The notes beneath the pieces were generated by a model. The model was not told the DNA's origin, made no database searches, and was given only the letters and a program-made list of their open reading frames with translations. A stretch of DNA of 64,000 nucleotides. Origin: an uncultured delta proteobacterium (GTDB lineage: Bacteria; Desulfobacterota; Binatia; UBA9968). Made by a program: the position numbers and the translations under genes. Below, piece after piece: positions 3,178 to 47,340 of this stretch; the stretch's first letter is position 1, and every line of letters starts with the position of its first letter. The DNA lies in contig CAVUZH010000022.1 in NCBI GenBank assembly GCA_963745835.1, positions 419,441 to 483,440 on the forward strand, written 5' to 3'.

Positions 3178-3193
3178 AGCAACAAATATGCCA
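3178..3193 (-). promoter_or_regulatory. sigma54-type -24/-12 promoter for the epimerase operon
   Basis: TGGCATATTTGTTGCT on the minus strand, GG-N10-GC, ~125 bp upstream of the ATG at 3052. Confidence 0.75.
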
Positions 3194-3520
3194 CTGAGAT
3201 ACATCGCGCCATGCAACGTAGATGGCGGATCAATGAGAATCTGACGTGTGCATCTCACGCGCAGCTGGATTGTTGGTCAACGTACATACAATCGTTCAAG
3301 AGTTTGTACGCGATCACGATGGATGCCGACGCACTAACAGCAATGATGCTGCTACCCTTATTAATATTACGCGAAGTCGTCTTGTACTCGATCGTCCCAA
3401 AGGAGAAACTATTAAACATGAATGATGTTTCAATTACGCGATTGATCGCGGCGGCGCGGCGTGTGCCGATTTGAGGACACGCGCTCCTGCGTTCGAAGCC
3501 CGCGTCGTCCAGTATTGCGA

Positions 3521-3536
3521 TGGCCCTCGTTTTGCG
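3521..3536 (+). promoter_or_regulatory. sigma54-type promoter for the DUF3182 operon
   Basis: TGGCCCTCGTTTTGCG, 100 bp upstream of ATG 3636. Confidence 0.6.
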
Positions 3537-3635
3537 CCGACATTAGGACACTAGCGATGAGTTTAGCCTGCGTGTGCGCCCGGGCATAAGCGGCATGTGA
3601 TTGCTGCGGACCATTCACAAACATTGCAAAGAAAA

Positions 3636-4784
3636 ATGACGATCCTCACGAAAGATCGCATAGGGACTCGTTCATCGCGGGTGCGAGGCGCAGTGGTTCT
3701 GTATACCGACCGTGCCTGCGAGCCGCCGGCTCAACACGAGAGCGTCACACGCTCGATGATTGCGGCAAAGCTCGCGGCATTGAAGGATTATGAGTTCGCC
3801 GGAGATTACGATCCGGCGCGCCGCTACGCCGGTCCATTGTATTTCGTTCCGAGTGACACTCTCACAGGATCTGAGTTGGTTCGAAAACTCGGTATTCGCG
3901 ATCATCATGACTTGTTTGGCGGCGTCGTTCCGTATCCGTTCGCTGCAACCAAAACGATCACACACCCGTTAGTGTCGAGCGACGCGTTCGCTCCGGAGGG
4001 TTGGTCACATGAGTTCGCGCGCAGCGTTCAGGGTGTGGTTCTTTTTGGCTTTTCCGCATTTGCACCTGCTGACCTGCGTCGCGCAACGGCACGGGTGCTG
4101 GCGCGCGGCCGCGCCCGCTTTAAACCGGCGTGTGGCATCGGCGGGCGCGGCCAGACCGTGATCACGTCCGCTGCGGATTTGGACGCGATTCTCGATACCA
4201 TCGATCCAGCGGAACTCGCTCTTTATGGGGCCGTGATCGAACAAAATTTCGATCAGATTGAAACCTACAGCGTCGGCCAGACTTATGTAGCGGACCTGTT
4301 GGCGACCTACTATGGCAGGCAGTTACTGACCAGAGACAACCGAGACGTCACCGTTTACGGCGGCTCGGATTTAATCGTAGTGCGCGGCGACTACGATGAT
4401 CTGCTCAGACTCGAGCTGCCGCCAGAGGCGCGGCGGGTGATAAACAACGCGCGCACATACGAAGCCGCCGCGTCACGGGCCTTTGCGGGATGGCTAGCCT
4501 CCCGGCGCAACTACGATGTTGCGCAGGTCGTCGACGATGACGGGCGCCGTTCCTCCGGCGTACTCGAACAATCTTGGCGCATCGGCGGCGCCAGCGCTGC
4601 GGAGATTGCCGCCCTTGAAGCTTTTCGCGCAGACCCGAGCCTGCGCTGGACGCGCGCGGCCTGTATCGAGGTCTACGGCCAGCACCAAGTGCCGCCGGAG
4701 GCGGTGGTTCATTTCCACGGTGTCGATGATCGGGTCGGACCAATCACCAAATATTCTCAGGTTAAAGCCTATGCCCATTCATGA
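3636..4784 (+). CDS. DUF3182 family ATP-grasp-like protein
   Basis: DLFGGVVPYPFAATKTITHPL family motif; ATP-grasp-like FKPACGIGGRGQ, VIEQN and LEQSWRIGG. Confidence 0.85.
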   Translation: MTILTKDRIGTRSSRVRGAVVLYTDRACEPPAQHESVTRSMIAAKLAALKDYEFAGDYDPARRYAGPLYFVPSDTLTGSELVRKLGIRDHHDLFGGVVPYPFAATKTITHPLVSSDAFAPEGWSHEFARSVQGVVLFGFSAFAPADLRRATARVLARGRARFKPACGIGGRGQTVITSAADLDAILDTIDPAELALYGAVIEQNFDQIETYSVGQTYVADLLATYYGRQLLTRDNRDVTVYGGSDLIVVRGDYDDLLRLELPPEARRVINNARTYEAAASRAFAGWLASRRNYDVAQVVDDDGRRSSGVLEQSWRIGGASAAEIAALEAFRADPSLRWTRAACIEVYGQHQVPPEAVVHFHGVDDRVGPITKYSQVKAYAHS

Positions 4785-5532
4785 TGAGCCGATCGAGATC
4801 GCGGTTGATGATCAACAGATCGAGGGCCGGCTGATCGCCGGCGTAAGCGCTGGGCCCGCCGTGCTGTTTGTCCACGGCTGGGGCGGCAATCAACAGCAAT
4901 ACCTCAATCGGGCTCGCGCCGTCGCCGAGCTGGGTTTTATCTGCTTGACGTTCGATCTGCGCGGTCACGCGCGTAACGATGGCCAACGCGAGATCGTTTC
5001 GCGTGAAGACAATCTAAGGGACCTCTTGGCCGCTTACGATGTATTGGCAAGCCGACCTGGCTCGGACCCCACAGCTCTAGGCGTTGTCGGCAGCAGTTAT
5101 GGCGCATATCTCGCGGTCATAATGACCTCTCAGCGAGCGGTGCGATGGCTCGCGCTGCGCGCGCCCGCCCTCTACAACGATGCCAATTGGGAGTTGCCCA
5201 AGCGCAAGCTTCATGAAGATCCGGATTTTTGCGCATACCGCAGGCGGGCGGTGGCTCCGGAGGAAAATCGGGCGCTGCGCGCGTGCGCGGCGTTTGCCGG
5301 TGATGTGTTGATCGTCGAGTCCGAGCAGGACAATACCGTGCCGCATCCGGTCATCGCTAATTACTTAGACGCCTTCACCCGGGCACGGTCGGTAACGCAC
5401 CGCTTGATCAAAGACGCAGATCACGGCCTATCCAACGTGTCGTGGCAGCGAACTTCTACATCATTCCTATTACAGTGGATTGCAGATCGGATCATCGGCG
5501 CAAGCGCCGGCGCGACTTATGCGCACGAGTAA
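4771..5532 (+). CDS. alpha/beta hydrolase (S9/DLH-like)
   Basis: FVHGWGG, GSSYG nucleophile elbow, Asp in EQDNTV, His in ADHGL; start overlaps the end of DUF3182. Confidence 0.9.
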   Translation: MPIHDEPIEIAVDDQQIEGRLIAGVSAGPAVLFVHGWGGNQQQYLNRARAVAELGFICLTFDLRGHARNDGQREIVSREDNLRDLLAAYDVLASRPGSDPTALGVVGSSYGAYLAVIMTSQRAVRWLALRAPALYNDANWELPKRKLHEDPDFCAYRRRAVAPEENRALRACAAFAGDVLIVESEQDNTVPHPVIANYLDAFTRARSVTHRLIKDADHGLSNVSWQRTSTSFLLQWIADRIIGASAGATYAHE

Positions 5533-5629
5533 ATGTTCACCGCGTAACACACCGTCGCGTATGACACGGCCGAGCTATGAATCGACGGGATTCATCGAAT
5601 TCGGCGCGATCGCAGCGGGCGCAACTGCG

Positions 5630-6397
5630 ATGAGTTCGGGTTGCAGTCTGAGCGTGCCGCCGGTGACGGACCAAACATCGCACCGGCCTTGGCCGCTACC
5701 AAAATCGCGCTGGATGATGTTCATGCGCTGGCATGATCTGCTGTTTCTTCATTGGCCGATTCGGCCCGAATACATTAGGCCGCTGATCCCCGCAGCGATC
5801 GAGCTCGATACCTTTGACGGATGGTGCTGGGTCGGAATCGTTCCGTTCCACATGAGCGGCGTGCGCCCGCGTTACGTTCCGCTGCCGCTGTCATTGCCGG
5901 AGCTGAACGTCCGAAGCTATGTCAAAACAGCAGGCAAAAGCGGCGTGTGGTTTTTCAGTCTCGACGCGGCGAGTTGGATTGCCGTCAGAGTGGCGCGATG
6001 GCTTGGCTTGCCCTATTACGATGCGCGCATGAAAGTCGAATCTGTCGCGGATATTATTCGTTATGACAGTGTCCGCAACCATAAGAACTCTGCGCGCGCG
6101 GAGTTCCGCGCCGACTATGGACCTACCGGACCGATTTATCGAGCTACTCCGGGCACGCTCGATCATTGGCTCACCGAGAGGTACTGCCTGTTTGCCGCAT
6201 TGAATCCTGATCGAGTGGTTTTTAACGAGATTCATCATCCACCCTGGGCGCTCCAACATGCCGAAATAAAGTTGGACGTGAACACGATGACACAGTCGAT
6301 CGGAATCGAACTACCGGAACAAAGACCGTTGGCTCACTTCGCGCGGCTTCAGGAAGTAGTTGCGTGGCCGATCGTCCCTCTCGCCGCAAATGCCTAG
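5630..6397 (+). CDS. DUF2071 (YqjF-like) protein
   Basis: HRPWPLP...W..LLFLHW, ELNVRSYV, GVWFFSLDA, WLTERY, IHHPPW; start codon uncertain. Confidence 0.9.
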   Translation: MSSGCSLSVPPVTDQTSHRPWPLPKSRWMMFMRWHDLLFLHWPIRPEYIRPLIPAAIELDTFDGWCWVGIVPFHMSGVRPRYVPLPLSLPELNVRSYVKTAGKSGVWFFSLDAASWIAVRVARWLGLPYYDARMKVESVADIIRYDSVRNHKNSARAEFRADYGPTGPIYRATPGTLDHWLTERYCLFAALNPDRVVFNEIHHPPWALQHAEIKLDVNTMTQSIGIELPEQRPLAHFARLQEVVAWPIVPLAANA

Positions 6398-6892: not shown

Positions 6893-6908
6893 TGGCATAT
6901 GCCTTGCT
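6893..6908 (+). promoter_or_regulatory. sigma54-type promoter, predicted near-leaderless transcript
   Basis: TGGCATATGCCTTGCT; predicted +1 ~6919, ATG at 6921. Confidence 0.75.
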
Positions 6909-8037: not shown

Positions 8038-8940
8038 TCACGCGTTCGCGGACTGAGGCGCAGCATCCATCGGTTGAGCGTTTTCAGCAGGGGCAACGCC
8101 GGATCCATATTGAGTCGCATACACTCTGGTAAATTCGGCGCCGAGAAAAAAGATCAAAGATGAGTAATAGACCCAGACCAGAATCGTAATCAGCGAACCC
8201 GCGGCGCCAAACGTCGAGCTGACACCGCTGGTTCCAATATAAAGTCCGATAAGATACTTCCCTACCGTAAACAGTATCGAAGTTAACGCGGCACCGACCC
8301 AGACATCTCTCCACTGGATCTCTACATCCGGCACGTACTTATAAATGAGCGCAAATAGTAACGTGACGAATCCAAAGGACACGAGGATATCGATCGCATG
8401 AGCCACGAATGTCGCGTCGCCTAAAAAGCTGGTCAGCATTGACGTGAAGCTACTCAGAACAGCGGTCACGACAAGCGAGACCAGCAGCAAGAACCCAATT
8501 GCTAGCACCATCGCGAAAGAGAAGAAGCGCTGCCGCAAAAAACCCCAGATGCCCTGGCCCGGCTTTGGGGTTACTTCCCACATCTTGTTGAGCGAAGTCT
8601 GCAGCTGGCCTACGACCCCGCCTGCGCCAAACAGCAAGGCGACAAAACCAATGATGGTGGACAACATCCCGGTCTTTGGTTTTTCACTGGATGCTTGGAT
8701 CATTTCCTGAACGGCTTTAGCGCTGTCTTGTCCAATCATCCCCTGAAGCGTTTCAACGATCTGATTCTGCGCCGCTTCTCTGCCGAAGACGAGGCCAGCG
8801 ACTCCAATAGCGATCAGCAGGAGTGGAGCCAGAGAAAATAGAGTGTAATACGATAATGCGGCCGCCAGCTGGAACGGTTCTGCTTCGACCCATTCGTTGA
8901 TGGTAGTTTTAAGAAACTGCCAAATAGACTTACGTTGCAT
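8038..8940 (-). CDS. YihY/virulence factor BrkB family membrane protein
   Basis: AAALSYYTLFSLAPLL, FGAAGSL, WVYYSS.IFFLGAEF. Confidence 0.95.
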   Translation of the reverse strand: MQRKSIWQFLKTTINEWVEAEPFQLAAALSYYTLFSLAPLLLIAIGVAGLVFGREAAQNQIVETLQGMIGQDSAKAVQEMIQASSEKPKTGMLSTIIGFVALLFGAGGVVGQLQTSLNKMWEVTPKPGQGIWGFLRQRFFSFAMVLAIGFLLLVSLVVTAVLSSFTSMLTSFLGDATFVAHAIDILVSFGFVTLLFALIYKYVPDVEIQWRDVWVGAALTSILFTVGKYLIGLYIGTSGVSSTFGAAGSLITILVWVYYSSLIFFLGAEFTRVYATQYGSGVAPAENAQPMDAAPQSANA

Positions 8941-9067: not shown

Positions 9068-9898
9068 CTAAGTGGATTCCCGGACCGCATTGGAAATCGA
9101 TTGCTTTGCCTCTTCGCCAACAGCATTAGCCTTGTCGCGCACCTGCTCATACGTCTCGGTCCCACGCTGCTTGACCTCGGAGAGGGCTTTGTCGCGCGCC
9201 GAACCGAACAACCGATCTTCTTGTTCGGTGGCGGGCAGAGCCGCACCAATGGCAGCTCCTACGGCGATGCCCAAAGCGCCCAGGAGCAGCGGCTGTTCAG
9301 TCAGAAGACTGTTAAAACCCTCGCGCACTCGTTGCGTTTGGAGTTGTGCAGTGCCTGAACTTCTTCTCAGTCCTGCTGACACTGTATCTTTAGTTCCTGC
9401 GAGCTTCTGTCGAGCTCGCTCGGCGGCGGACTTCACCCGCTGCCCTGCTTCACTCAAGCTTCCCTCGGCAGAGGCTTTGAGGCGTTGCGCTTTATCAGTC
9501 AAGCCTTCCTTCTGATCGCCTGCATCGTCCTCATAGCCTGTATCATCGATCTCAACGGCGTTGAGATCATCGCGTGCATAGCGATCGTCGTAAGCATCAG
9601 CGAGCGACGGTTTGGGTCGATTACTCGAAGCGACCATCCAGGCAATTCCCACTGCGGTTAATAGCGCCGGCACCGGGTTCTCTTTCACTGACCGGCCGAG
9701 ATTGTTTGCGAACTCTCCGCCATTCTCTCGAGCGAATTCCATCGCCTGATCTAACAGTTGACCCGGCGAAAACTTGCGCTCCAATGCGCCGAGCGTCCGG
9801 TCCATGTTCGCCCGGGTCTGGTCGATCTCTCGTTCCAGGGTTGCCGGATCTTTTCGCGCATCATCTCTGAGGTTGCTTGTGTTATTTATGTTGCTCAC
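9068..9898 (-). CDS. DUF3618 domain protein
   Basis: LEREIDQTRANMDRTLGALE N-terminus; PLLLGALGIAVGAAIGAALP.TEQED C-terminus. Confidence 0.85.
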   Translation of the reverse strand: MSNINNTSNLRDDARKDPATLEREIDQTRANMDRTLGALERKFSPGQLLDQAMEFARENGGEFANNLGRSVKENPVPALLTAVGIAWMVASSNRPKPSLADAYDDRYARDDLNAVEIDDTGYEDDAGDQKEGLTDKAQRLKASAEGSLSEAGQRVKSAAERARQKLAGTKDTVSAGLRRSSGTAQLQTQRVREGFNSLLTEQPLLLGALGIAVGAAIGAALPATEQEDRLFGSARDKALSEVKQRGTETYEQVRDKANAVGEEAKQSISNAVREST

Positions 9899-10332
9899 GA
9901 CGCCCTCCTTTGAACCATCTCCTTGTCTTTGCGCAGCGCATCCTGAGTCCGCTCAGGCTTGAAAGACAATGGATCTAACTTCTTCTTGCCGCTTTGGATC
10001 ATCACAAAGCCAATGACCCCTACCACCACGGCGACGATAAGAGCTGCCAACCAAGGCTCCATCCGTTCGGCCAGCAGCAGGACAATTGCGCCAAGTAGGA
10101 CGAGAACGGCGGCGAAAACAATTGCGCCGCCAGCTACCAGGCTGATGGCTCCGGCCTTCGCTTCTGAAGCCGCTTCGGATACCTCTGCCTTTGCCAGCGC
10201 TATCTCTTTGCGAAACAGCGTCGACACTTCCCCCATGAGACGACTTAGAAGGCCGGCTGCCGAATCGGGTTCACGGTCGACGCGAGATGACTCGGTTGCT
10301 GGCGTAGCTTGCAATGGCGGTTGTTTTGCCAT
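9895..10332 (-). CDS. Phage-holin-like (YhjD/DUF1469-type) two-TM membrane protein
   Basis: LFRKEIALAKAE, two TM helices, PERTQDALRKD tail; sits between coupled stress genes. Confidence 0.85.
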   Translation of the reverse strand: MAKQPPLQATPATESSRVDREPDSAAGLLSRLMGEVSTLFRKEIALAKAEVSEAASEAKAGAISLVAGGAIVFAAVLVLLGAIVLLLAERMEPWLAALIVAVVVGVIGFVMIQSGKKKLDPLSFKPERTQDALRKDKEMVQRRAS

Positions 10333-10334
10333 GA

Positions 10335-10907
10335 TCAAACTCCTTTCTCCAGATCGTCAGCGAAAGACGGACTGCCCGCGGATGACGAGGGCGTCGTCCT
10401 AGCTGATTCGGATATAACCGACGGGCGCGACTCAAAGGTGATCGGTTGCACGGTCGATTGGCTCGAGCCGTAGAACTCAGATTCATTCTGCCGGTTGGCG
10501 CCGCCACGCTGGGTCGATGCCTTCAGAAACCTCGAAAGCGCAATGCCAACGGCCACACTCCCCACCAAGAAAAGGGTCGGATTATTGCGCGCCAGTTGTT
10601 GGGTATCTCTGACCAGCTCGTCGAGATTCCGCTGCCTCAAGCTTTCAGCGAAATCCTTCATACTGCCTGCCAACTGACCTGCGTAATCAGCCAACGATTC
10701 TTGATTCTGACTTTTGAGTTCCTCGGAAACTCGGTCGACCACGCCGGCCAGCTTTTCAGTTTGGTCCGCCGCCGTCTGTTTACGCGCTTCGAATTGTTCC
10801 TGACTCTGCCGCTTCACATCCTGCGCCACTCCGGCCGCCTCATTCTTCACCTTATTGATTGCGCCGCCGTCGGTTACGCCGGCGGTTTGGCTTGATTGGT
10901 TCTCCAT
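10335..10907 (-). CDS. ElaB/DUF883-like tail-anchored stress protein
   Basis: Helical N-terminus, ARNNPTLFLVGSVAVGIALSRFLK; AAGGAG RBS; first gene of the conserved triplet. Confidence 0.8.
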   Translation of the reverse strand: MENQSSQTAGVTDGGAINKVKNEAAGVAQDVKRQSQEQFEARKQTAADQTEKLAGVVDRVSEELKSQNQESLADYAGQLAGSMKDFAESLRQRNLDELVRDTQQLARNNPTLFLVGSVAVGIALSRFLKASTQRGGANRQNESEFYGSSQSTVQPITFESRPSVISESARTTPSSSAGSPSFADDLEKGV

Positions 10908-10999: not shown

Positions 11000-11015
11000 C
11001 GCAATGGTTATGCCA
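11000..11015 (-). promoter_or_regulatory. sigma54-type promoter for the 10907-8038 operon
   Basis: TGGCATAACCATTGCG on the minus strand. Confidence 0.75.
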
Positions 11016-13214: not shown

Positions 13215-15173
13215 CTAGCGCGGCCGAGCACAGAGATGATTCTTTATCATCTGGTCGAGCGATTTTAGATCAACCGGCTTGACGCAGTATTCGTCAAAAC
13301 CGGCCTGTTTCGCCAATTGCTGGTGCTCATCCTGTGCGTACCCCGAGATCGCGATCAAGTAAACATTTTTGAGCTCGGCGTCTTGCCGGATCGTCCGCGC
13401 AATCGCGTAGCCATCCACCCAGGGCAGCGCAATGTCGCAGAGCACGACATCGGGTCTCAGGTTTCTCGCGATCACGAACGCTTCGACTCCGTTATGGGCT
13501 ATCTCGACCAGGTGGCCAGCATCTTGAAGGAACAGTTGCATGGCGCGAGCTCCAACCTGATTGTCGTCGATAATGAGAACACGGCATGCGATCGGATCCG
13601 TCGATTGAGAAGCGCTCAATTCAGGCTTGGAATCGCTCGGCGCACTAGGATCTCTCTGGACCGGCAACCGAACGATGAACTCTGTACCCTTTCCGGGTCC
13701 CTTACTGCTCGCCGACACCGTCCCACCGTGCATTTCAATGAATGCCTTAACTAAAGTTAGACCCAAGCCGAGACCGCCGCGGCTACGATCGAAAGATCGC
13801 AACGCCTGGCTGAATGGCTCGAACAAACGGGTCAGCTTGCTCTCATCCATGCCGATCCCGGTATCACGAACCTTGAGAACAGCTGTTTGTTGATTCGGAA
13901 CGATGGCTAGGGTCACGGTCACCGTGCCAGCCGGTGGCGTGAACTTTTGGGTATTGTGCAAGAGGTTTCCAACCGCCTGTCCCAAACGCCTGCAATCCCC
14001 TAGGACCCAGACAGGATCCTGCGGCAGCTGCAGCGCGAGGCGGATGCCGGCGGAGCCTAGGATCCCTCGATAGTCCTCCGCTGCTTCGCGCACAATCGCC
14101 GCGAAATCGCAGGACTGTTTACCAATTTCAACCTGCCCGGCAGAGATCCGCGAAAGGTCGAGCAGGTCGTTAGTAAGATGTGTCATGCGAGTGATCTGCC
14201 GCTTGATGATAGCCCTGAGTTGTCGCGCTTCCGGTGTATCTGAAACGGGCAGCAGCTCAACGGCATTGCCGATGACGCCTAACGGATTGCGCCACTCATG
14301 CCCGAGTACGGCTAAAAACTCATCCTTCCGTTTGTCAGCCTCGCGCAATCTCCCTTCTAGTTGTCTTTGATCGGTGAGATCCTGAATCACCACATTGACC
14401 CCGATACACTCGCCATTTAGATCCTTTAATGGGAAATAGCTGTTTAGCCATGTTCTCTTAACACCTGGTTGCGCGCCGGTCTCGCCTATCATCTGGACAT
14501 TGAGACGAGGCTTTCCTGTAACTAGCACCTCCCGGCACGCTGTTTCGACCGCGCCGGCGATGCTAGGGATTATTTCGCGGACGGTTCGTCCGATGTGTTG
14601 GTCAGCCGGTATGCCATTCTTCTCCGCGAGCAAATCGTTTACCCGGATATAACGCAACTCGGTATCTAGTACGGCGAGACCCACCGGAGCTGTTGCATAG
14701 ATAGAATTGAGTTCCGCCAGCTGCGCCGCATTTTGACGATTAGCCTCGCGAAGTTGATCAAGGAGAAAGCGTTTCTCTTGATCGCGTTCGTAGAGACGCA
14801 ACAACGCCTTTGTCGCGCCTAGAAGTTCCGCGGGTTCAACCGGCTCAGTCAAATACGTGTCAGCCCCGCGCTCCAATCCAATAGCCCGATCCTCGGGGCT
14901 AAGATACATAGCCGAAATTTGCAGAACCATAATGTGCGCGGTTGCCGGGTCTGCTTTAATCGCTTCGCAGACTGCAAAGCCGCTGGTATCGGGCAACTTG
15001 ACATCGAGCAGTACAAGACTCGGTTGGAACTCCTTGACAACCCGCAATGCCTCGGCGCCGGTCTCCGATTCGATCACCTGATATCCGCCGCGTTTGAGGA
15101 TGCGGCTCTTGGCGTATCGCCGCGCTTCGTTGTCATCGACGTTGAGAACCGTGGGAAGTTCTAAGCCATTCAT
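13215..15173 (-). CDS. Hybrid sensor histidine kinase (REC-PAS-HisKA-HATPase-REC)
   Basis: N-terminal LNVDD/LLDVKLPD, PAS, H-box GHEWRNPL, DTGIG, GGLGLG, C-terminal IIDD/LCDIALP. Confidence 0.95.
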   Translation of the reverse strand: MNGLELPTVLNVDDNEARRYAKSRILKRGGYQVIESETGAEALRVVKEFQPSLVLLDVKLPDTSGFAVCEAIKADPATAHIMVLQISAMYLSPEDRAIGLERGADTYLTEPVEPAELLGATKALLRLYERDQEKRFLLDQLREANRQNAAQLAELNSIYATAPVGLAVLDTELRYIRVNDLLAEKNGIPADQHIGRTVREIIPSIAGAVETACREVLVTGKPRLNVQMIGETGAQPGVKRTWLNSYFPLKDLNGECIGVNVVIQDLTDQRQLEGRLREADKRKDEFLAVLGHEWRNPLGVIGNAVELLPVSDTPEARQLRAIIKRQITRMTHLTNDLLDLSRISAGQVEIGKQSCDFAAIVREAAEDYRGILGSAGIRLALQLPQDPVWVLGDCRRLGQAVGNLLHNTQKFTPPAGTVTVTLAIVPNQQTAVLKVRDTGIGMDESKLTRLFEPFSQALRSFDRSRGGLGLGLTLVKAFIEMHGGTVSASSKGPGKGTEFIVRLPVQRDPSAPSDSKPELSASQSTDPIACRVLIIDDNQVGARAMQLFLQDAGHLVEIAHNGVEAFVIARNLRPDVVLCDIALPWVDGYAIARTIRQDAELKNVYLIAISGYAQDEHQQLAKQAGFDEYCVKPVDLKSLDQMIKNHLCARPR

Positions 15174-15389
15174 GAGAGGTAAGGGATCGTATACGAATCC
15201 GCTGAGATTCGTCAATCGATTCTGCGAGTCGGGCTTTTGCCCCGAGATAATGAATTTTTGCCGGCGCGGTCTCGAATCGATCAGACCGTCCGATCGGTGG
15301 ACCAAAATTATGAAAGCGCGAGGAGAGAGGATGTGTAATTCACAAAATAAGCATAAACGTCGCTGTCCGACAGCATTTTGGATTCGTGT

Positions 15390-16410: not shown

Positions 16411-16426
16411 TGGCATCGCCATTGCG
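16411..16426 (+). promoter_or_regulatory. sigma54-type promoter for the GT4 gene
   Basis: TGGCATCGCCATTGCG. Confidence 0.75.
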
Positions 16427-21429: not shown

Positions 21430-21445
21430 TGGTATGTGTTTTGCT
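21430..21445 (+). promoter_or_regulatory. sigma54-type promoter
   Basis: TGGTATGTGTTTTGCT upstream of 21540. Confidence 0.7.
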
Positions 21446-24816: not shown

Positions 24817-24996
24817 GCAATCCCCTAATCCAAACGCACCGATGGGCAAGCTCGCGTGCTCTGATCATCTACGGCAAACTTCTCGGCATGCGTCGCGCTG
24901 CTCTCAGAGTTCGGCATTTGCAACCCTCGGACTGCCGCTCGGTTCGCTGTCCCAGTTTTGCTAAAACTGGTCGAGGAAAAACAGGCCATTCTCCCC

Positions 24997-25012
24997 TGGC
25001 ATAGGCTTTGCG
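24997..25012 (+). promoter_or_regulatory. sigma54-type promoter for the PRTase operon
   Basis: TGGCATAGGCTTTGCG. Confidence 0.75.
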
Positions 25013-32062: not shown

Positions 32063-32078
32063 CGCAAAAATGATTCCA
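32063..32078 (-). promoter_or_regulatory. sigma54-type promoter, predicted near-leaderless
   Basis: TGGAATCATTTTTGCG; predicted +1 ~32052, ATG 32048, no RBS. Confidence 0.65.
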
Positions 32079-32370: not shown

Positions 32371-32386
32371 TGGCATCTTCGTTGCA
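32371..32386 (+). promoter_or_regulatory. sigma54-type promoter for PRC-barrel/recQ
   Basis: TGGCATCTTCGTTGCA. Confidence 0.75.
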
Positions 32387-37025: not shown

Positions 37026-37041
37026 GGCAAAACATATTCCA
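37026..37041 (-). promoter_or_regulatory. sigma54-type promoter
   Basis: TGGAATATGTTTTGCC. Confidence 0.6.
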
Positions 37042-37188
37042 GGCAACACGCTTTTTCAATACAGCAAATACATTGGCGAAACCGACCAGCAGTGATGAGC
37101 GCTGTACTACTGTTGGGACAGCTCAGCTGATTTATCGAAATCGATGTGCCAGATCCGATACACTGATGATGAGGTACCTACGCCAGGA

Positions 37189-38231: not shown

Positions 38232-38247
38232 CGCAAAAGCCATTCCA
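38232..38247 (-). promoter_or_regulatory. sigma54-type promoter (leftward member of a divergent pair)
   Basis: TGGAATGGCTTTTGCG. Confidence 0.6.
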
Positions 38248-38281: not shown

Positions 38282-38297
38282 TGGCATACCGGTTGCA
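38282..38297 (+). promoter_or_regulatory. sigma54-type promoter (rightward member of a divergent pair)
   Basis: TGGCATACCGGTTGCA. Confidence 0.75.
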
Positions 38298-38486: not shown

Positions 38487-38651
38487 GTTTTCGGGGGCGC
38501 TGAGATGTCGACGGAGTGGGCACGGTGCTGCTCTCTCCGTTCGAGACACTTATGTGCCGATTCCAAGACATAGAACTACGTCTCCGGGGCACTTCCGGGA
38601 CGGGGAAAGGTGCCATGCAATTGCGACCGTCAGAATCGCATTAGATTCCTG

Positions 38652-38667
38652 TGGTATGTCGATTGCT
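38652..38667 (+). promoter_or_regulatory. sigma54-type promoter for csbD
   Basis: TGGTATGTCGATTGCT. Confidence 0.75.
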
Positions 38668-39050: not shown

Positions 39051-39815
39051 ATGAGCGATAACATGGTTCATATCGCCGCTATCGCCGATCTGCATTGCAA
39101 GAGCAATTTCGCGGGAAAGTTCCGAGCGCTATTTGCACAGATCAGCGATAGCGCGAATATCCTGCTGCTCTGCGGCGATCTGGTCGATTATGGCTTGCCT
39201 GAAGAAGCTCACGTGCTGGTAAAAGAATTAAGCGATGTCACCAAACGGATACCCATTATCGCCGTGATGGGGAATCACGAGTTCGAATCCGGCAAGATCG
39301 ACGAAGTGCAAAAGATACTAACCGATGGCGGCATTCTCCTGCTTGACGGCGAGGCATGCGAGATCGAGGGGATCGGTTTCGCCGGGGTCAAGGGTTTCGC
39401 CGGCGGCTTTGGCGAACGGCTGCTTGCGCCATGGGGCGAGGCCATAATGAAGAAATTTGTGCATGAGGCTGTGGAGGAAGCCCTGAAGCTTGAATCCGCT
39501 CTGGCCAAGCTGCGCACGACCCATCGCATTGCTCTGCTGCACTACTCGCCGATTGCGGCGACCGTAATGGGAGAACCGCTGGAGATTTATCCCTTCTTAG
39601 GATCGAGCCGGCTGGAGGAGCCGTTAAATCGATTTTCCGTGACCGCTGCCTTTCACGGTCACGCGCATCACGGCGCCCCTGAAGGCAAAACCAAAACCGG
39701 CGTGCCAGTTTATAACGTCGCGATGAAACTTCTCGAATACACTTTTCCCGGCCAACTTCCCTACCGCATTTTGAATTTACCCCGTGACAACAGCTCCGCT
39801 AATGAAAGGTCGTGA
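39051..39815 (+). CDS. Calcineurin-like metallophosphoesterase
   Basis: ADLH, CGDL, GNHE, LHYSP, HGHAH. Confidence 0.93.
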   Translation: MSDNMVHIAAIADLHCKSNFAGKFRALFAQISDSANILLLCGDLVDYGLPEEAHVLVKELSDVTKRIPIIAVMGNHEFESGKIDEVQKILTDGGILLLDGEACEIEGIGFAGVKGFAGGFGERLLAPWGEAIMKKFVHEAVEEALKLESALAKLRTTHRIALLHYSPIAATVMGEPLEIYPFLGSSRLEEPLNRFSVTAAFHGHAHHGAPEGKTKTGVPVYNVAMKLLEYTFPGQLPYRILNLPRDNSSANERS

Positions 39816-40636
39816 TCACCGTGCCAACCGCGCCTGAGGAGAAAGCCAACCATATCTTTTATCAAGATGTGTTGAAGACAGTGCGACAGGCGGAAATACC
39901 GTTTTTAATCAGCGGCGGATTTGCGCTGCAACAATTCACCGGCATCTCAAGAGAAGTGAGAGACCTAGATATCTTTGTACTCGAAAAGCACATCCGTGCG
40001 GCGCTTGAGGCGCTTTCCGAAGCTGGCTATCCGACTGAGCTGACATTCTCGCATTGGCTCGGCAAAGTTTATAATCACGGTCGGACCGACTATGTCGATC
40101 TGATTTTTAGCTCCGGAAATGGACTATGCAAAGTCACCGAGAGCTGGTTCGAGCGCGCCGTCCCCAGTGAAGTGTTCGACATGCCGGTCTTCCTGTGCGC
40201 TCCCGAAGAAATGATCTGGCAGAAAGCGTTCATCATGGAGCGGGAACGCTATGACGGCGCCGATGTCGCCCATCTGATTCGGACGCAAAGCGATGCCATA
40301 GACTGGAACCGGTTGATCGGCTTGTTTGGCGAGCATTGGCGAGTGCTTCTGAGTCATGTGATCTTGTTTGAGTTCATCTATCCGACCGAGCGCGCGAAAA
40401 TTCCTCATTGGGTAAAGCAGAGACTCGTGACTCTGCTCCAAAGGGAGTTCGACGAACCATTTACGGAGGAACAGGTATGCCAGGGACCGCTTCTTTCCCG
40501 TTCACAATTTCGCGTCGATACGGAGACTTGGGGCTATAAAGATGCCCGTTTGAACATCATGTCACCGGAAGAGGTGACGCATTGGACAGAAGCTGCGGAG
40601 GAAAAAAAAGAAAAGGAAAAAGAAGAAAAGCCTTAA
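39812..40636 (+). CDS. Pol-beta superfamily nucleotidyltransferase
   Basis: ISGGFAL, RDLDIF (DxD), VDLIF; GTGA coupling to the upstream gene. Confidence 0.88.
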   Translation: MITVPTAPEEKANHIFYQDVLKTVRQAEIPFLISGGFALQQFTGISREVRDLDIFVLEKHIRAALEALSEAGYPTELTFSHWLGKVYNHGRTDYVDLIFSSGNGLCKVTESWFERAVPSEVFDMPVFLCAPEEMIWQKAFIMERERYDGADVAHLIRTQSDAIDWNRLIGLFGEHWRVLLSHVILFEFIYPTERAKIPHWVKQRLVTLLQREFDEPFTEEQVCQGPLLSRSQFRVDTETWGYKDARLNIMSPEEVTHWTEAAEEKKEKEKEEKP

Positions 40637-42580: not shown

Positions 42581-43369
42581 TTACCGTTTGTCTTGTTGCT
42601 TCTCTGACTTCGCCTGCCGGTTGTCAGTTTTTCCTTGTCTCTGGCTAAGCGCCTTGTCCGTTGCATCCGCTTGCCACAAATTCGAAGTCACGTCGACTTT
42701 GGTGGCCTTGCCGCTGTTCTTGTCAAAATCGATCTGCACCTCATAGGTGTCGTTGCCTTTGACGATCTCGTACTCTACGTAATCGGGCTTGTCAGCATTG
42801 ACGGATGTGATCTTGTAACCCATCTTCTCGAGCTGGCTCCGATAGCTCTGCTTGGTTTCGCCGGTCTTCAGTGTCTTCTCCAGCTTCTCCTCCTCGCTGT
42901 CGTAAGCCTTGCGCCTATCCCGGTCGCTGTAACGTTCAGGGTTAGCTATCGCACCCTTTGGCGCGGAAACCTTTTTTCCTCGCAAAGCTGCCTTGGTAGA
43001 ATCTGTTCGCCACAGGTTCGGAGCGATGTCTATTTTTGTGGCTTTACCGCTTTTGTCAAAATCGAGCTGCACCTCATAGGAATTGTTGCCTTTGACAATC
43101 TCGTATTCGACATAATCTGGTTTGTCATAATTAATTGAGGTGATTTGGTAACCCATCTTCTCCAGCTCGCGCCGGTAGAAGTTCTTGTCCTGTCCAGCCT
43201 TCAGCGCCTTCTCCAGTTTCTGCTCTTCATCGTCATAATTTTTTCTCATGTCACGATCACTATAACGGCTTTGATCGTTAGCGCCTTTCTTGACGGCGCT
43301 GTCTGCGGCAAGTAGCGGCGCAGGGGCGATTAGCACAGCAGCTGTTAACATTAGAAAGCGAACTTTCAT
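42581..43369 (-). CDS. Secreted protein with a duplicated PepSY-like domain
   Basis: Signal peptide; two ~90-aa repeats RYSDRD...LEKMGY.ITS.N.DKPDYVEYEIVKGN..YEVQ.DFDK. Confidence 0.85.
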   Translation of the reverse strand: MKVRFLMLTAAVLIAPAPLLAADSAVKKGANDQSRYSDRDMRKNYDDEEQKLEKALKAGQDKNFYRRELEKMGYQITSINYDKPDYVEYEIVKGNNSYEVQLDFDKSGKATKIDIAPNLWRTDSTKAALRGKKVSAPKGAIANPERYSDRDRRKAYDSEEEKLEKTLKTGETKQSYRSQLEKMGYKITSVNADKPDYVEYEIVKGNDTYEVQIDFDKNSGKATKVDVTSNLWQADATDKALSQRQGKTDNRQAKSEKQQDKR

Positions 43370-43446
43370 GTTGATTCCTCCTCTGGTTGAATCATCTAGA
43401 TGGAAACTCATCCGTTCGTTGTGTTCGATCGCACGAAGGTAAGTAG

Positions 43447-43462
43447 AGCAATCGATATGCCA
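43447..43462 (-). promoter_or_regulatory. sigma54-type promoter
   Basis: TGGCATATCGATTGCT. Confidence 0.78.
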
Positions 43463-43721
43463 GCACCTCCGAAACAACGGTAATCCAGAGGCGGCTCACC
43501 CTAATCGAGCATCTCGAGGAGTTGCGTTCAGCTAATGGACAGCATAGCGCACGAGCTGTAGCGATTGCGGCACAGCGAACGGGACACTTTCTCAGATCAG
43601 AGACATACAGGGTCTGAGTGCGCCTATACCGCGAAGAAACACGGAGGTCACTCGAGGAATGTATGAGCGTCTTGCAGCCGCTTCTAGTGGCTCTTCCTGG
43701 CTGTATCGTGGTGTCTGAGTG

Positions 43722-44486
43722 TTAGGGAGTGGTCTTTTCTCGCTCGGCGTAATAGGCACGACCGCGCTCGTAACCGCGGCGAAATGTTGCGTCCTCACAA
43801 ATATCGGGCCGCAACTCGCGCAACTTCGGTACCGCAGCTTCATAGGCTTTACCGCGGCAATCAGGATGGAGAGCTGTTTCAAAGCCACTGCGATAGATAT
43901 CTTCGTTTTCTCGAAAGTCACCGTCCGGTGCATCAAACTGCGCTTCTTCTGCATCACGCAGTCCGATCCACCACTTGTCACGCGCAGCATCGATGCTCTC
44001 AGCGCCATTTCGCTCGATCACAGATCGCCCTTTTTCAATCGCCTCGTCGTCTGTGGACGTGCCAATCAATACCGTGCGGCACTGCCTCAAAGCATCTTCA
44101 TAAAAGAAAAGCTCATCCTTGGGCAGCCCCGGTGAAAGTTGGTTCTCAAGTGCGCCGCCGGTTGCCGCGCCAGCCACTGCGCCGCCGATTCCAAACGCCC
44201 CGGCACCTAACCCAATTGCCAGTATGGTCCCGACACCCGGCAAGACAATGCTTGCGACAACACTTCCGGCGGCCAGCCCAACCGCGCCGCCCACCACGCC
44301 ACCGATTGCGCTTCCCATACCGGGCTGCTCGCCTTCATCTGTCGGGACCGCATCGAGCTCTTTTGCGGAGCTTCCCGGCGCCAGCAGCACAATATCTTCA
44401 TTGCGGAAGCCCGCCTCAGTTTGCAGCTCCGAAAATGCCCGCTCGGCTTCTTTCCTCGAATTAAAAATTCCGGCGATGGTTCCCAT
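43722..44486 (-). CDS. General-stress-protein-like glycine-zipper membrane protein
   Basis: IAGIFNSRKEAERA, GGVVGGAVG..., LPGVG, YEDALRQ, C-terminal YRSGFE/FRRGYERG. Confidence 0.8.
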   Translation of the reverse strand: MGTIAGIFNSRKEAERAFSELQTEAGFRNEDIVLLAPGSSAKELDAVPTDEGEQPGMGSAIGGVVGGAVGLAAGSVVASIVLPGVGTILAIGLGAGAFGIGGAVAGAATGGALENQLSPGLPKDELFFYEDALRQCRTVLIGTSTDDEAIEKGRSVIERNGAESIDAARDKWWIGLRDAEEAQFDAPDGDFRENEDIYRSGFETALHPDCRGKAYEAAVPKLRELRPDICEDATFRRGYERGRAYYAEREKTTP

Positions 44487-44537: not shown

Positions 44538-44553
44538 CGCAATTGAAATGCCA
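44538..44553 (-). promoter_or_regulatory. sigma54-type promoter
   Basis: TGGCATTTCAATTGCG. Confidence 0.75.
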
Positions 44554-44795: not shown

Positions 44796-44811
44796 TGGCC
44801 CTCGCTTTGCA
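44796..44811 (+). promoter_or_regulatory. sigma54-type promoter for the DksA/TraR-like gene
   Basis: TGGCCCTCGCTTTGCA ~200 bp upstream of 45018. Confidence 0.55.
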
Positions 44812-45017: not shown

Positions 45018-45449
45018 ATGAACAACCGATTGGCCAAGGAACTCGGCGCGACTTTGCGGCGCAAGCGATCATCTCTGCTGCTGCAAGAAATTGTCGGCAG
45101 CCAGAACGAAGTCGAGCCATCGTTAGAAGAGCGTGAGAGCGAGCTCGAAGAGAGCGCCCAAAAGGATCGCATGACTCGCTTGGAGAGTCGCCTGACAGAG
45201 CGCGGCCAGACCCTGCTCCGCCAGATCGACGACGCTCTTGAACGAATCGATGCGGGAACTTTCGGCGAGTGTGAACGATGCGGCAATGATATCGGTCACG
45301 GCCGGCTCAAGGCGATGCCGACAGCGGCGCTCTGCATCGATTGTGCAACCGCCGTGGAGAAGAGACAGCGCCTGCTAGGGGCGAATGGAGATGTTGAGCG
45401 ACTGCCATTCAAAGACGATGAGCTTGAAGGTCGCCTAGGCTCCGAGTAA
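45018..45449 (+). CDS. TraR/DksA family C4 zinc-finger protein
   Basis: IDDALERID.GTFGECERCG..I...RL.A.P.A.LCIDC. Confidence 0.92.
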   Translation: MNNRLAKELGATLRRKRSSLLLQEIVGSQNEVEPSLEERESELEESAQKDRMTRLESRLTERGQTLLRQIDDALERIDAGTFGECERCGNDIGHGRLKAMPTAALCIDCATAVEKRQRLLGANGDVERLPFKDDELEGRLGSE

Positions 45450-45499
45450 TCAGAGGATTCATGCAGACGGGTTTAGCTTGGCAACGTTGTCGGCGGAAG

Positions 45500-47110
45500 C
45501 TAGTTGCGGCGAATGTCCGCAGCGGCTTCCGCTGTCACATTGGCTGGTAAGGTCAAGTGGAAGGTGCTGCCCTTGCCTACTGTGCTGGCGTAAGAAACTA
45601 CGCCATCGTGAGCAAGGATAATTTGCTGCACAATGAACAACCCTAGACCGGTGCCGTGCGGCTTTGTCGAGCTGAACAGATCAAAGACCTTCAGGTCATC
45701 GGGAATACCTATACCGGTGTCACTGATATCGATGCAGATCGACCCGCCGTTCAAGTATCCCTTTACAGACAAAGTGCCGCCGTAGGGCATCGCCTCTACG
45801 GCATTTTTAAAAAGATTGAGTAACGCCTGTTTGAGTTTCGCCCCGTCGCCGCGGATTGGCGGCAGATCCGGCGAGCACTCCCACACAATCTGAACGTCCC
45901 CTTTGCCGTCCATATCCAATCCCGAGATCGTTTCTTGCAGGACGCTGGCGAGCTTCACCGGCTGAAGACTAAGTTTTTGAGGTCGCGCGATCGTTTTGAA
46001 TTCGTTCAGCAGAGAAGTAAGCCGGTCAATCTCACTCTTCAAGTCCTTCAAGGTCGCTAGCATATGCGGCGGAGCTTTGATGCCCTCTCGACTGATAAAT
46101 CGCTCCAGCAGTTGGACTGTGGTGGAAATGCCGTTCAGCGGATTGCCAATCTCATGAGCCAGCATGGATGCCGCGGTTCCAATCGCCGCCAGATGTTCCT
46201 TTTCCCGTAACTTCTCTCTCAGATTTCGTTCCTGCGAGTCATCGCGCAATAAAATCAAAAATCCCTGCAAACCGTCGGCGTCGTCACGTAGCGCAAAGAC
46301 GATGACCCTAGCATAAAACTGTGAGCCGTCTTTGCGCACCAGCAGTTGGTAATCGCGAAATGTTCCTTGATCACTCGCCTCATCAAGCGCCTTTTTTATT
46401 AACGCCTGTCTTCCTTCCTGATCGGCAAAGAAAACCGACAACCGCTGGTCCGCCATATCGTCACTCTCGCGGCCCAGAATGCGGGTTGCGGTTCGGTTCC
46501 AGTCAACGATGCGGCCATCGGCATCGGATATCAGAACCGCGTAATTGGTGATGTTGCGGAGCAAATTCCCGAGGATTTGCTCGACCTGCTTGCGTTGCGC
46601 CTCCTCGTGCTGAAGCTCCTCGGTTTTCGACATCAACTCGGATGTTTGTTCGATCACGCGCTGCGCCAAACGCTGATTCAATTCGAGAATAATCTTTTCC
46701 GCCTCGTTGCGTTCGGTAACTTCTCGAATAACTTTTACGACGTAGGCGCCCTTATCAGTTTGCAGAAGCGTGCACGTTGCTTCCGCGGCAAAAAGCGATC
46801 CGTCACGGCGGCGATACTGCCATTCACCGCGCCAGCAGCCGTTTTGCTCGATGTCGGGAATCGAGGTCTGATAGATGCGATCGAACCAATTCTTGTCGAG
46901 GTACAGCCGTTCGGTGGTCTGTTGCAAGACCTCCTGAGCCGAATAGCCAAACAACAAGGTTGCGCCTTCATTCCAGTAAACGATACAGCGCGACTTGAAC
47001 TCGATAACGATGATCGCCTCAGGAATCCCTTTGTACAGTGACACCAGGACCTTCTCATCGAGCGGCGGCGGACAAGTTTGGCTATGAATTGCTGGTTCGT
47101 TGGCAGACAT
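45500..47110 (-). CDS. PAS-PAS sensor histidine kinase (NtrB-like transmitter)
   Basis: Two PAS domains, LAHEIGNPL, NLFKNAVEAM, DTGIG, GTGLGL. Confidence 0.95.
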   Translation of the reverse strand: MSANEPAIHSQTCPPPLDEKVLVSLYKGIPEAIIVIEFKSRCIVYWNEGATLLFGYSAQEVLQQTTERLYLDKNWFDRIYQTSIPDIEQNGCWRGEWQYRRRDGSLFAAEATCTLLQTDKGAYVVKVIREVTERNEAEKIILELNQRLAQRVIEQTSELMSKTEELQHEEAQRKQVEQILGNLLRNITNYAVLISDADGRIVDWNRTATRILGRESDDMADQRLSVFFADQEGRQALIKKALDEASDQGTFRDYQLLVRKDGSQFYARVIVFALRDDADGLQGFLILLRDDSQERNLREKLREKEHLAAIGTAASMLAHEIGNPLNGISTTVQLLERFISREGIKAPPHMLATLKDLKSEIDRLTSLLNEFKTIARPQKLSLQPVKLASVLQETISGLDMDGKGDVQIVWECSPDLPPIRGDGAKLKQALLNLFKNAVEAMPYGGTLSVKGYLNGGSICIDISDTGIGIPDDLKVFDLFSSTKPHGTGLGLFIVQQIILAHDGVVSYASTVGKGSTFHLTLPANVTAEAAADIRRN

Positions 47111-47324
47111 TGTGCCCTTATCTTTGCAGCCACCTTAAGTGACTGCTGCGAATTCTATTGAGGTCCTACGATCTGGGTCATCATTTAACTATATCGCTGA
47201 TAAATCAAGATCCTCTCAATCTAGCTTGGCACAGATCGACTGCCGCCTCACCCGAAGACGCACCGGATAGGGTGAATTCCGACCTGGGACAAACCCCTTT
47301 GTGAAAACGAATCGCAAATCGTAC

Positions 47325-47340
47325 TGGCATGCTCGTTGCG
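47325..47340 (+). promoter_or_regulatory. sigma54-type promoter for ASRT
   Basis: TGGCATGCTCGTTGCG, followed by an AGGAG RBS. Confidence 0.78.

Follow-up and report, generated by a model that had tools for sequence, protein, structure and literature searches.

Which sigma factor drives the general-stress genes of an uncultured soil bacterium? The question is raised by a 64,000-nucleotide (nt) stretch of the genome of an uncultured member of the Binatia (contig C22, positions 419441-483440; hereafter the window), in which an initial annotation had listed 17 intergenic matches to the -24/-12 promoter of sigma-54 (RpoN) ahead of genes of general-stress type. General stress responses are textbook cases of sigma-factor competition, and three architectures are known, namely RpoS in Gammaproteobacteria, SigB in Bacillota and EcfG/PhyR in Alphaproteobacteria; csbD, katE, osmY, dps and similar genes belong to one or another of these regulons. 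Sigma-54 promoters need an ATP-driven activator and are silent until that activator is switched on. We find that the 17 sites are probably real or near-real RpoN promoters, 14 of them strong and three weaker, heading about 17 stress-protection units.

Sigma-54-type promoters in the window and the genome

The consensus used was a GG (-24) and a GC (-12) one helical turn apart, in the form TGGCAC-N5-TTGC. The pattern TGG-N8-TTGC occurs 28 times on the two strands of the window, against a mean of 9.05 (standard deviation 2.81, maximum 16) in dinucleotide shuffles, none of 100 of which reached 28. On a gene list refined by hand with Pfam (12,246 intergenic and 51,754 coding bases), 19 of the matches are intergenic and nine coding, and the coding rate predicts about 2.1 intergenic ones. 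The 17 annotated sites are all among the 28, all intergenic, all at the canonical GG/GC spacing and all aimed at the next gene, whose open reading frame (ORF) starts 3-208 nt past the TTGC; the other 11 matches are at about chance level. Minus-strand sites begin one base later than annotated (3179, not 3178). Scored with a weight matrix built from 138 intergenic sites of the same genome, 14 sites lie at 15.9-23.8, 32064(-) reaches 13.3, and 3521(+) and 44796(+) stay below 11. Two weaker copies that had also been pointed out, 7649(+) and 36564(-), do keep GG-N10-GC, but they score below 11 and were left out of the count.

The initial annotation was right that 15 of the 17 sites have AT at positions 5-6 and that none has TGGCAC. 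However, the sixth base is sometimes T and sometimes C in the orthologous promoters of relatives, and we rejected a meaningful preference for TGGCAT over TGGCAC because orthologues switch between both.

Genome-wide, genes were called with a simple codon-usage model (6809 genes, 80% coding, about 20% of the DNA intergenic). TGGCAT-N5-TTGC has 85 occurrences, of which 76 fall in this intergenic fifth of the DNA, and TGGCAC-N5-TTGC has 27, of which 24 do. The spacing controls TGGCAT-N4 and TGGCAT-N6 occur 12 and 15 times, mostly in coding DNA; since they lose the enrichment, the signal depends on the exact sigma-54 spacing. Sorted by bases 4-6, the intergenic/coding counts are 76/9 for CAT, 24/3 for CAC, 19/5 for TAT, 7/3 for TAC, 6/4 for CCC and 5/16 for AAT, and column counts of the intergenic sites favour G or T after TTGC. 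At a matrix score of at least 16 there are 148 sites, 126 of them intergenic and 14 in the window. Set against shuffled, coding and wrong-orientation DNA, the pattern thus held up, the excess being intergenic, spacing-dependent and oriented: in same-strand gaps, 47 of the 148 sites point toward the downstream gene and eight away, the rest lying in divergent gaps (65), in convergent gaps (six) or inside called genes (22). Most of the 148 sites lie 12-150 nt ahead of the next start codon, and several only 12-20 nt ahead of it. Within the window, the transcript from the predicted promoter 6893(+) would be leaderless or nearly so, and promoters 38233(-) and 38282(+) stand back to back, 35 bp apart.

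Conservation in relatives and beyond

Forty relatives (G numbers below) were searched: seven from its own genus, 17 other members of its family (f1) and 16 from two other families. Syntenic stretches were taken from eight relatives. For the 17 first genes in these eight, 44 of 65 orthologous upstream regions score at least 14 on the coding strand (one truncated locus dropped), and the nine opposite-strand matches are all at known divergent promoter pairs; conservation upstream of orthologues, a check that the initial annotation had proposed, is thus seen. The conservation counts include the unpublished genomes G018 and G012, all of whose loci are misses or weak sites.

The strongest single case is the gene of 254 amino acids (aa) behind promoter 44539(-). 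Its site scores at least 17 in 11 of 13 scorable loci, in six genera and down to 45% protein identity; the exceptions are G008, without a site, and G018, with a weak one. What these promoters still share is confined to TGGCAY, TTGC and the next G, the flanks being unalignable and the spacers varied. Before the DksA-like gene, the TGGCCC form is shared with three close relatives, two other genera have a canonical TGGCAC-N5-TTGC instead, and no site is present at another three loci of the genus. The TGGAAT sites before the response regulator, the 95-aa ORF and the 122-aa ORF are kept in 3/5, 4/4 and 4/4 loci, respectively. Other cases are given in Table 1.

CsbD genes occur in 17 of the 24 genomes of family f1 and in 0/16 of the other two families. 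Of the 29 scorable CsbD loci in the relatives, 15 carry a coding-strand site and none an opposite-strand one. Among the 80 closest public CsbD loci, mostly from Proteobacteria, nine score at least 14 on the coding strand, against one on the opposite strand. Seven of the nine come from bins of Burkholderiales, Betaproteobacteria or Casimicrobiaceae (L334, L341, L362, L389, L392, L393 and L398), their csbD being about 65-72% identical to that of the window; six of these sites read TGGCAC-N5-TTGC and the seventh (L398) CGGCAT, and they lie about 50-105 nt before the gene. Sigma-54 wiring of csbD may therefore also exist outside the Binatia.

Genomic setting of the cluster

The window (0.88% of the 7.28 Mb genome, which is in 25 contigs) is the right half of an island of about 100 kb, at about 366-467 kb of C22. 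The cluster had been taken to begin at 3178. This is not borne out, as the island runs at least 45 kb further left; the left boundary was placed there because the edge of the window falls there. The left half, from about C22:366 kb, holds genes for Hsp20, glgB, a treS-maltokinase fusion, glgE, an NtrC-type enhancer-binding protein (EBP) and a 160-aa ORF, followed by an RpoD-like sigma gene, sucA/sucB, and an alternative complex III with a caa3-type oxidase, as well as genes for a BON protein, a ferritin/Dps-like protein and a Transgly_assoc protein. Strong sites lie there at C22:377539(-), 381572(-), 381724(+), 399813(+) and 404566(+). A 17-kb minus-strand operon left of the window, with an inositol-1-phosphate synthase gene and several glycosyltransferase genes, is continuous with the first two genes of the window and is therefore most simply driven by promoter 3179(-).

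The right limit near 47.4 kb holds at the level of scored sites, none reaching 14 past 47325. It does not hold for the bare pattern, which recurs at 52618, 56321, 60077 and 61837. The matches at 56321 and 60077 look alike because both sit in a direct repeat of about 365 nt, 94-98% identical, at 56035-56398 and 59794-60154. The two copies bracket two minus-strand genes, one for a MetA-pathway-type porin and one for a 655-aa hydrolase. Since the right copy extends over the 5' end of the bestrophin-like gene 60007-60771, the left one has the look of a duplicated gene start that an insertion left behind.

Genome-wide, predicted sites are densest, by 50-kb bins, on C22 (about 350-467 kb) and on C14 (about 300-445 kb). 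The C14 hot spot holds three Usp genes, PaaA-like genes and two EBP genes (C14:392140-393084 and 414532-415920), and may be a separate regulon.

Table 1. Predicted sigma-54 sites, candidate enhancer boxes and sensor kinases of the window, with the genes behind each site and their conservation
Feature	Sequence	Position	Strand	Score	Genes or location	Conservation
Predicted promoter	TGGCATATTTGTTGC	3179..3193	-	20.7	Epimerase 1940-3052, heading a long minus-strand operon past the left edge of the window; then second epimerase, inositol-1-phosphate synthase, glycosyltransferases (Pfam)	Same site upstream of G006 orthologue
Variant TGGCCC site	TGGCCCTCGTTTTGC	3521..3535	+	<11	DUF3182 (3597/3693-4784), alpha/beta hydrolase (4771-5532), DUF2071 (5561-6397)	Identical in G006
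Predicted promoter	TGGCATATGCCTTGC	6893..6907	+	21.2	Cys-rich ORF of about 63 aa, ATG 6921 (likely) or 6915, end 7112	G006
Predicted promoter	TGGCATAACCATTGC	11001..11015	-	22.4	190-aa ORF 10335-10907, Holin-X family 9895-10338, DUF3618 9068-9898, BrkB/YihY 8038-8940	5/5 other loci of genus; one at 53% protein identity with different spacer
Predicted promoter	TGGCATCGCCATTGC	16411..16425	+	18.6	GT4 glycosyltransferase 16523-17629; neighbours GDE/MGH1-like hydrolase 17543-19693 (-), HAD-IIB phosphatase 19798-21237	G006
Predicted promoter	TGGTATGTGTTTTGC	21430..21444	+	20.4	100-aa ORF 21540-21842, topoisomerase IB 22002-23150, GH13 alpha-amylase-family 23194-24816	G006, G005
Predicted promoter	TGGCATAGGCTTTGC	24997..25011	+	20.1	Phosphoribosyltransferase 25087-25791, 60-aa ORF, erythromycin-esterase-family 26062-27156	See text
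Weaker TGGAAT site	TGGAATCATTTTTGC	32064..32078	-	13.3	Single-domain response regulator 31671-32048, ATG 16 nt from site	15-mer identical, at same distance, in G004, G006, G002
Predicted promoter	TGGCATCTTCGTTGC	32371..32385	+	19.2	PRC-barrel protein 32430-33191, RecQ-type helicase 33112-34824	4/4 orthologous loci, including another genus (G019, 50% identity)
TGGAAT site	TGGAATATGTTTTGC	37027..37041	-	16.9	95-aa ORF 36678-36965	4/4 orthologous loci, down to 62% identity
TGGAAT site	TGGAATGGCTTTTGC	38233..38247	-	15.9	122-aa YtxH/ElaB-like ORF 37726-38094, DUF3618-like ORF 37189-37635	4/4 orthologous loci
Predicted promoter	TGGCATACCGGTTGC	38282..38296	+	17.6	54-aa ORF 38322-38486	3/3 orthologous loci, spacers vary
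Predicted promoter	TGGTATGTCGATTGC	38652..38666	+	19.0	csbD 38704-38901; after it on the same strand metallophosphoesterase 39051-39815, nucleotidyltransferase 39812-40636	See text
Predicted promoter	TGGCATATCGATTGC	43448..43462	-	23.8 (best of window)	276-aa ORF 42581-43411	4/5 orthologous loci
Predicted promoter	TGGCATTTCAATTGC	44539..44553	-	21.2	254-aa ORF 43722-44486, without Pfam family, distantly like a DUF2382 protein of the same genome	See text
Variant TGGCCC site	TGGCCCTCGCTTTGC	44796..44810	+	<11	DksA/TraR-type zinc-finger 45018-45449, 208 nt from site	See text
Predicted promoter	TGGCATGCTCGTTGC	47325..47339	+	20.2	ASRT-family 47366-47737	See text
Candidate box	TCGTCCCA	3394..3399	+		Shared region between promoters 3179(-) and 3521(+)	
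Candidate box	TGTCCCA	24949..24954	+		48 nt upstream of 24997 (phosphoribosyltransferase)	3/3
Candidate box	TGTCCCA	37114..37119	-		Upstream of 37027(-) (95-aa ORF)	2/3
Candidate box variant	GTCCCG	38596..38601	-		Upstream of csbD promoter	
Candidate box variant	GTCCCG	43580..43585	-		Upstream of 43448(-) (276-aa ORF)	2/3
Candidate box	TCGTCCCAC-GGG-TGGGAA	44662..44667	-		Between 44539(-) and 44796(+) (254-aa and DksA-like genes)	GTCCCR box in region kept in 9/11 genomes
Candidate box	TGTCCCA	47285..47290	-		40 nt upstream of ASRT promoter	3/4
Hybrid PAS histidine kinase, two receiver domains		13215..15305	-		Receiver-only gene 12189-12644 (-)	
PAS-PAS histidine kinase		45500..47110	-			

Genes served by the predicted promoters

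The genes behind the 17 sites belong to families that are typical of general-stress regulons. By Pfam, the window has among others csbD, YtxH/ElaB-like, DUF3618, BrkB, PRC-barrel, DksA-like, phospholipase-D-family and GH13 genes, and the hallmark stress families (csbD, katE, osmY/BON, dps, trehalose, usp, elaB/ytxH) are present in the genome. Two observations on individual window genes may be added. A bacterial type IB topoisomerase gene shares a predicted sigma-54 unit with a GH13 enzyme gene. The ASRT gene belongs to the Anabaena sensory rhodopsin transducer family, which has matches in 12 of the 41 genomes searched with the window query, and no rhodopsin gene is found among the window ORFs scanned against Pfam.

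Outside the window, we took the first ORF with a positive coding score behind each site scoring at least 15.5, which gave 121 ORFs. The stress-type genes among them encode a long katE-type catalase, two more CsbD proteins, three Usp proteins, a BON protein, an entericidin, a glycine-zipper protein, two hemerythrins, four SRPBCC proteins, DUF4142, DUF2382, BrkB and Holin-X proteins, a desaturase and a CBM48 glycogen enzyme. Classical sigma-54 targets are also there, namely two ammonium transporters (amtB), five ABC_sub_bind proteins, a T2SSE ATPase, three GT2 enzymes, two SLT-LysM proteins, kinases and an EBP. The roughly 130-150 predicted promoters of the genome also serve amtB, ABC binding protein, pilus, glycosyltransferase and cell-wall genes. 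Since classical and stress-type targets share the motif, sigma-54 is not a dedicated stress sigma factor here.

Sigma factors and activators

The genome has one rpoN gene (C19:355348-356913, 521 aa), which scores 446.7 bits on TIGR02395 against a cut-off of 277.35; for its DNA-binding domain, the nearest public genomes are bins labelled Candidatus Binatia or 'Deltaproteobacteria'. PF00158 gives 33 matches, about 25 of them full EBPs. None of the matches lies in the window, which agrees with the suggestion that the activator is encoded elsewhere, and the nearest EBP gene is C22:374965-376317. The inventory thus contains what the initial annotation presupposed, an rpoN above cut-off and EBPs in number. 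The 22 EBP ORFs checked all carry Sigma54_activat, mostly in the order receiver-AAA-HTH (HTH_8), some with GAF/PAS sensors and three without an N-terminal sensor domain. A class of EBPs without a DNA-binding domain was considered as a reason why the 17 promoters share no enhancer, and was rejected: the alignments of the two short EBPs reach the C-terminal end of AtoC-type models, so that these proteins are PspF-like, without an N-terminal sensor domain. The two window kinases (Table 1) possibly provide the signal input to the island.

Two EBP loci elsewhere have unusual contexts. An identical GAF-PAS EBP gene with a sigma-54 site stands in the same context on two contigs (C12:2364-6288 and C19:542568-546493), which is assembly redundancy or a recent duplication and fits the estimated contamination of the bin (9.33%). 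On C25, identical sigma-54 sites at 9644(-) and 12008(+) face outward and flank the EBP gene C25:10069-11550, each preceding a 75-aa ORF, with equal coding scores for the two ORFs; this looks like an inverted duplication.

No protein reaches the TIGR02394 cut-off for RpoS (378.7). The best match, at 294.8, is the RpoD-like gene of C24, and for the sigma factor of the island the score is 222 when the genome is searched and 234.5 when the protein is. The 19 matches to the sigma-70 family comprise RpoD, two RpoD-like proteins, an RpoH-like protein and ECF-type proteins. No PhyR was seen, 0/5 of the sigma-70-family ORFs read carrying a receiver domain.

A candidate enhancer box

The enhancer of a cognate EBP is an element common to the promoters of one regulon, lying some 80-200 nt upstream of them and often preceding the operon of the EBP as well. 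Upstream of the 145 merged promoter regions of the genome, no 6-mer is more enriched than GTCCCA (28 against 9.39 expected, p=6.9e-7 over 2080 words), and CGTCCCA leads the 7-mers (14 against 2.81 expected, p=1.6e-6 over 7820 words). We take these as a candidate box, T-Y-GTCCCA, located 40-250 nt upstream of the -24 element. The genes behind it are on eight contigs and only stress-type or unannotated (SRPBCC, hemerythrin, CBS, CsbD, BON, M48), and it stands before 0/16 of the transport, nitrogen and envelope targets. Its retention in orthologous promoters is listed in Table 1.

Promoter C22:377539(-) heads the operon of the 160-aa ORF and the EBP C22:374965-376317, followed on the same strand by glgE, treS-mak and glgB. 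Two boxes 31-32 nt apart precede it in 4/4 genomes, including G002 with its diverged flanks. That this EBP is an autoregulated activator binding the YGTCCCA box is conceivable, if on balance somewhat doubtful. Paired boxes (28-36 nt start to start) were rejected as a general rule, as there are three promoter-linked cases genome-wide and most targets have a single box. The EBP is 99.8%, 99.6% and 96.2% identical in G006, G005 and G002, and the ORF adjoining it 96%, 90% and 69%; as far as these alignments go, the high identity of the EBP indicates unusually strong constraint or recent exchange.

Proposed regulation and its alternatives

In the mechanism that we propose, the sigma-54 holoenzyme would sit closed on TGGCAY-N5-TTGC, and the complex would be opened by phosphorylated EBPs of the NtrC family, one or several, with signal input from histidine kinases like those of the island. 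The best candidate for part of the regulon, EBP C22:374965-376317, would bind YGTCCCA boxes 40-250 nt upstream and activate its own operon, and the genus-specific RpoD-like sigma factor with its conserved sigma-54 promoter would probably form a second tier. The full proposition, that in this Binatia genus, and partly in its family, sigma-54 holds the role of RpoS, SigB or EcfG by way of one autoregulated YGTCCCA-binding NtrC-type activator and an RpoD-like second tier, is tentative, and in that complete form we hold it to be less likely than not. We infer from sequence the transcription from the 17 sites, the stress signals inducing it and the pairing of the EBP with the box. The 'desiccation-dormancy' label may suit the island, judging by its gene content. 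The promoter properties, rpoN, the EBPs, the stress families and the lack of an RpoS at cut-off all agree with the initial proposal of a stress programme run through sigma-54 and an EBP; a single activator for the whole set is no more than possible.

Expression data touch on the island at the level of assembled contigs. Part of a 9.9-kb stretch of it occurs in 20 sequencing runs, 15 of them recorded as RNA. Four soil metatranscriptomes, each from a different study, contain contigs 95-99% alike that span portions of many genes of the island; DNA carry-over is possible, and gaps in this coverage carry no meaning.

Several points weigh against the proposed explanation. The genome bin is 97.1% complete and 9.33% contaminated, and the intergenic/coding splits are approximate, resting on crude gene calls (80% coding). 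The TGGAAT class has no intergenic enrichment genome-wide (five intergenic, 16 coding), so that the case for 32064, 37027 and 38233 is made by where they lie and by their conservation in relatives. The site is kept in 4/16 loci of katE, mostly in near relatives, in 1/5 of the window csbD, in 5/11 of ASRT, all close relatives, and in 4/10 of the phosphoribosyltransferase, all four of the same genus. With these four promoters largely confined to near relatives, the wiring is young or patchy; among the orthologues that the initial annotation had proposed to check for conservation, csbD and ASRT follow this pattern, and the GT4 site is kept in G006. Sigma-54 also serves classical targets here and is a broad regulator with an unusually large stress component. 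By dyad and k-mer enrichment, no word or dyad is common to all 17 upstream regions after correction; a shared enhancer for all 17 was thus rejected, the GTCCCA family surfacing only in the genome-wide promoter set. The 8-mer form TCGTCCCA (eight against 0.96 expected) is not significant after correction, the box in its GTCCCR form stands at only nine of the 17 window promoters, in seven separate regions, and the PRC and 190-aa promoters lack it. Two RpoD-like sigma factors exist that could be the true stress sigma factors, and the contigs from the RNA runs show no 5' ends.

The missing common motif and the box at nine of 17 promoters lend themselves to another explanation, in which the promoters are real and serve no single stress programme; they would form a mosaic of small regulons under several of the 25 or so EBPs, each answering its own signal (oxygen, osmolarity, carbon, envelope), and 'general stress response' would overstate the case. 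We regard this as a serious possibility that falls short of being probable. About 25 EBPs for about 130-150 promoters would suit it, as would the second hot spot on C14 with its own EBPs and Usp genes. A precedent is the Myxococcus EBP NmpR, which is reported to govern a small oxygen regulon with Usp genes among its members, to bind GCGCA-N5-TGCGC and to regulate itself from binding sites ahead of its own operon (PMC11841059). However, this NmpR-type site, tried here as a candidate box, shows no enrichment (it occurs at 31 of 153 promoters and in 17% of background regions) and was rejected. The sites are also strongly clustered, 14 of 148 lying in less than a hundredth of the genome, and the GTCCCA word family prevails in the upstream regions, with ties to stress-type genes on eight contigs.

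The two RpoD-like genes besides rpoD suggest a further alternative, in which sigma-54 is a first tier or an auxiliary, and the main stress sigma factor is an RpoD-like protein (group-2-type) that reads sigma-70-type promoters of the stress genes themselves. The RpoD-like gene of the island (C22:379943-381544), which is below every curated sigma-factor cut-off, has a sigma-54 promoter (C22:381572) 42-55 nt before its start in 5/5 orthologues of the genus; 0/25 of the loci of its paralogues examined have one. The arrangement recalls the Rrp2-RpoN-RpoS cascade of Borrelia burgdorferi, where a sigma-54 promoter drives an alternative sigma factor of the sigma-70 family. Nevertheless, conserved -24/-12 elements stand at promoter distance before the stress genes themselves (sigma-70-type promoters were not searched for), and we consider this alternative unlikely. 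The sigma-54 promoter of the RpoD-like gene is divergent from a second one before sucA.

It is also conceivable that the motif is the site of another protein, a repressor or an unrelated sigma factor, and merely resembles the sigma-54 consensus, as its link to RpoN is made through sequence and TGGCAT is favoured over the textbook TGGCAC. This is very improbable. Only the GG and TTGC blocks are kept, at the exact sigma-54 spacing, and a one-base shift abolishes the enrichment; the orientation of the sites is strict, orthologues switch between T and C, the genome has a full-length rpoN, and classical targets (two amtB, five ABC_sub_bind, an EBP gene, T2SSE) carry the motif. A chance or compositional artefact, for which one could cite the three TGGAAT and two TGGCCC sites in classes with weak or no intergenic enrichment, is scarcely credible and already contradicted for the strong sites, given that 0/100 shuffles reach the count, that sites are conserved within diverged flanks and that the weak ones are also kept in relatives.

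Comparison with known systems

The predicted sigma-54 system resembles RpoN/NtrC-family systems in its GG/GC blocks, its canonical spacing, the form TGGCAY-N5-TTGC and the orientation near start codons, as well as in having rpoN, many EBP genes, and the motif at amtB, ABC binding protein and EBP genes. The textbook consensus is TGGCAC-N5-TTGC followed by A or T. In contrast, T prevails over C at the sixth base here (76 against 24 intergenic), G or T follows TTGC, and the regulon is loaded with general-stress families. In gene content it is like the RpoS, SigB and EcfG-PhyR regulons, sharing with them csbD/yjbJ, elaB/ytxH-like genes, katE-type catalase, BON (osmY-like), entericidin, Dps, trehalose/glycogen, Usp and DUF2382/PRC-barrel genes; unlike them, it has promoters of sigma-54 type, with no RpoS at cut-off and no PhyR seen.

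In Myxococcus xanthus a cascade of EBPs governs starvation-induced development. That organism is a fitting comparison, being of a soil lineage formerly in the Deltaproteobacteria, with many NtrC-like EBPs and large sigma-54 survival regulons. The present case differs in its candidate box (YGTCCCA, the NmpR site not being enriched) and in its targets, which are stress genes of RpoS/SigB type and not developmental ones. With the Borrelia cascade it shares the predicted sigma-54 promoter before a sigma-70-family gene; unlike in Borrelia, predicted sigma-54 promoters also stand before the stress genes, and the sigma factor further down the cascade is RpoD-like and reaches none of the curated cut-offs.

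In the full-text literature outside subscription journals we came across no account of csbD-type general-stress genes under sigma-54 control and no promoter study of Binatia. What is known here is ordinary sigma-54 machinery, and what is new is the predicted, unusual regulon content in an uncultured lineage. That sigma-54 promoters precede a cluster of general-stress genes is, as a computational prediction, well supported.

If the full proposition of a single activator with a second tier is true, it would be a fourth general-stress architecture, fully off until an ATPase is activated, in which csbD, katE, BON, Dps and trehalose genes would be under an all-or-none ATP-dependent switch and not under sigma-factor abundance. 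It offers a concrete, testable regulon, with about 17 window promoters, a candidate box and a candidate activator, whose reconstitution in a heterologous host would be possible without growing the organism. For annotators it is a warning that stress regulons are not transferable from model organisms by gene content alone. For the biology of these abundant uncultured soil bacteria, it would bear on how they enter and leave dormancy.

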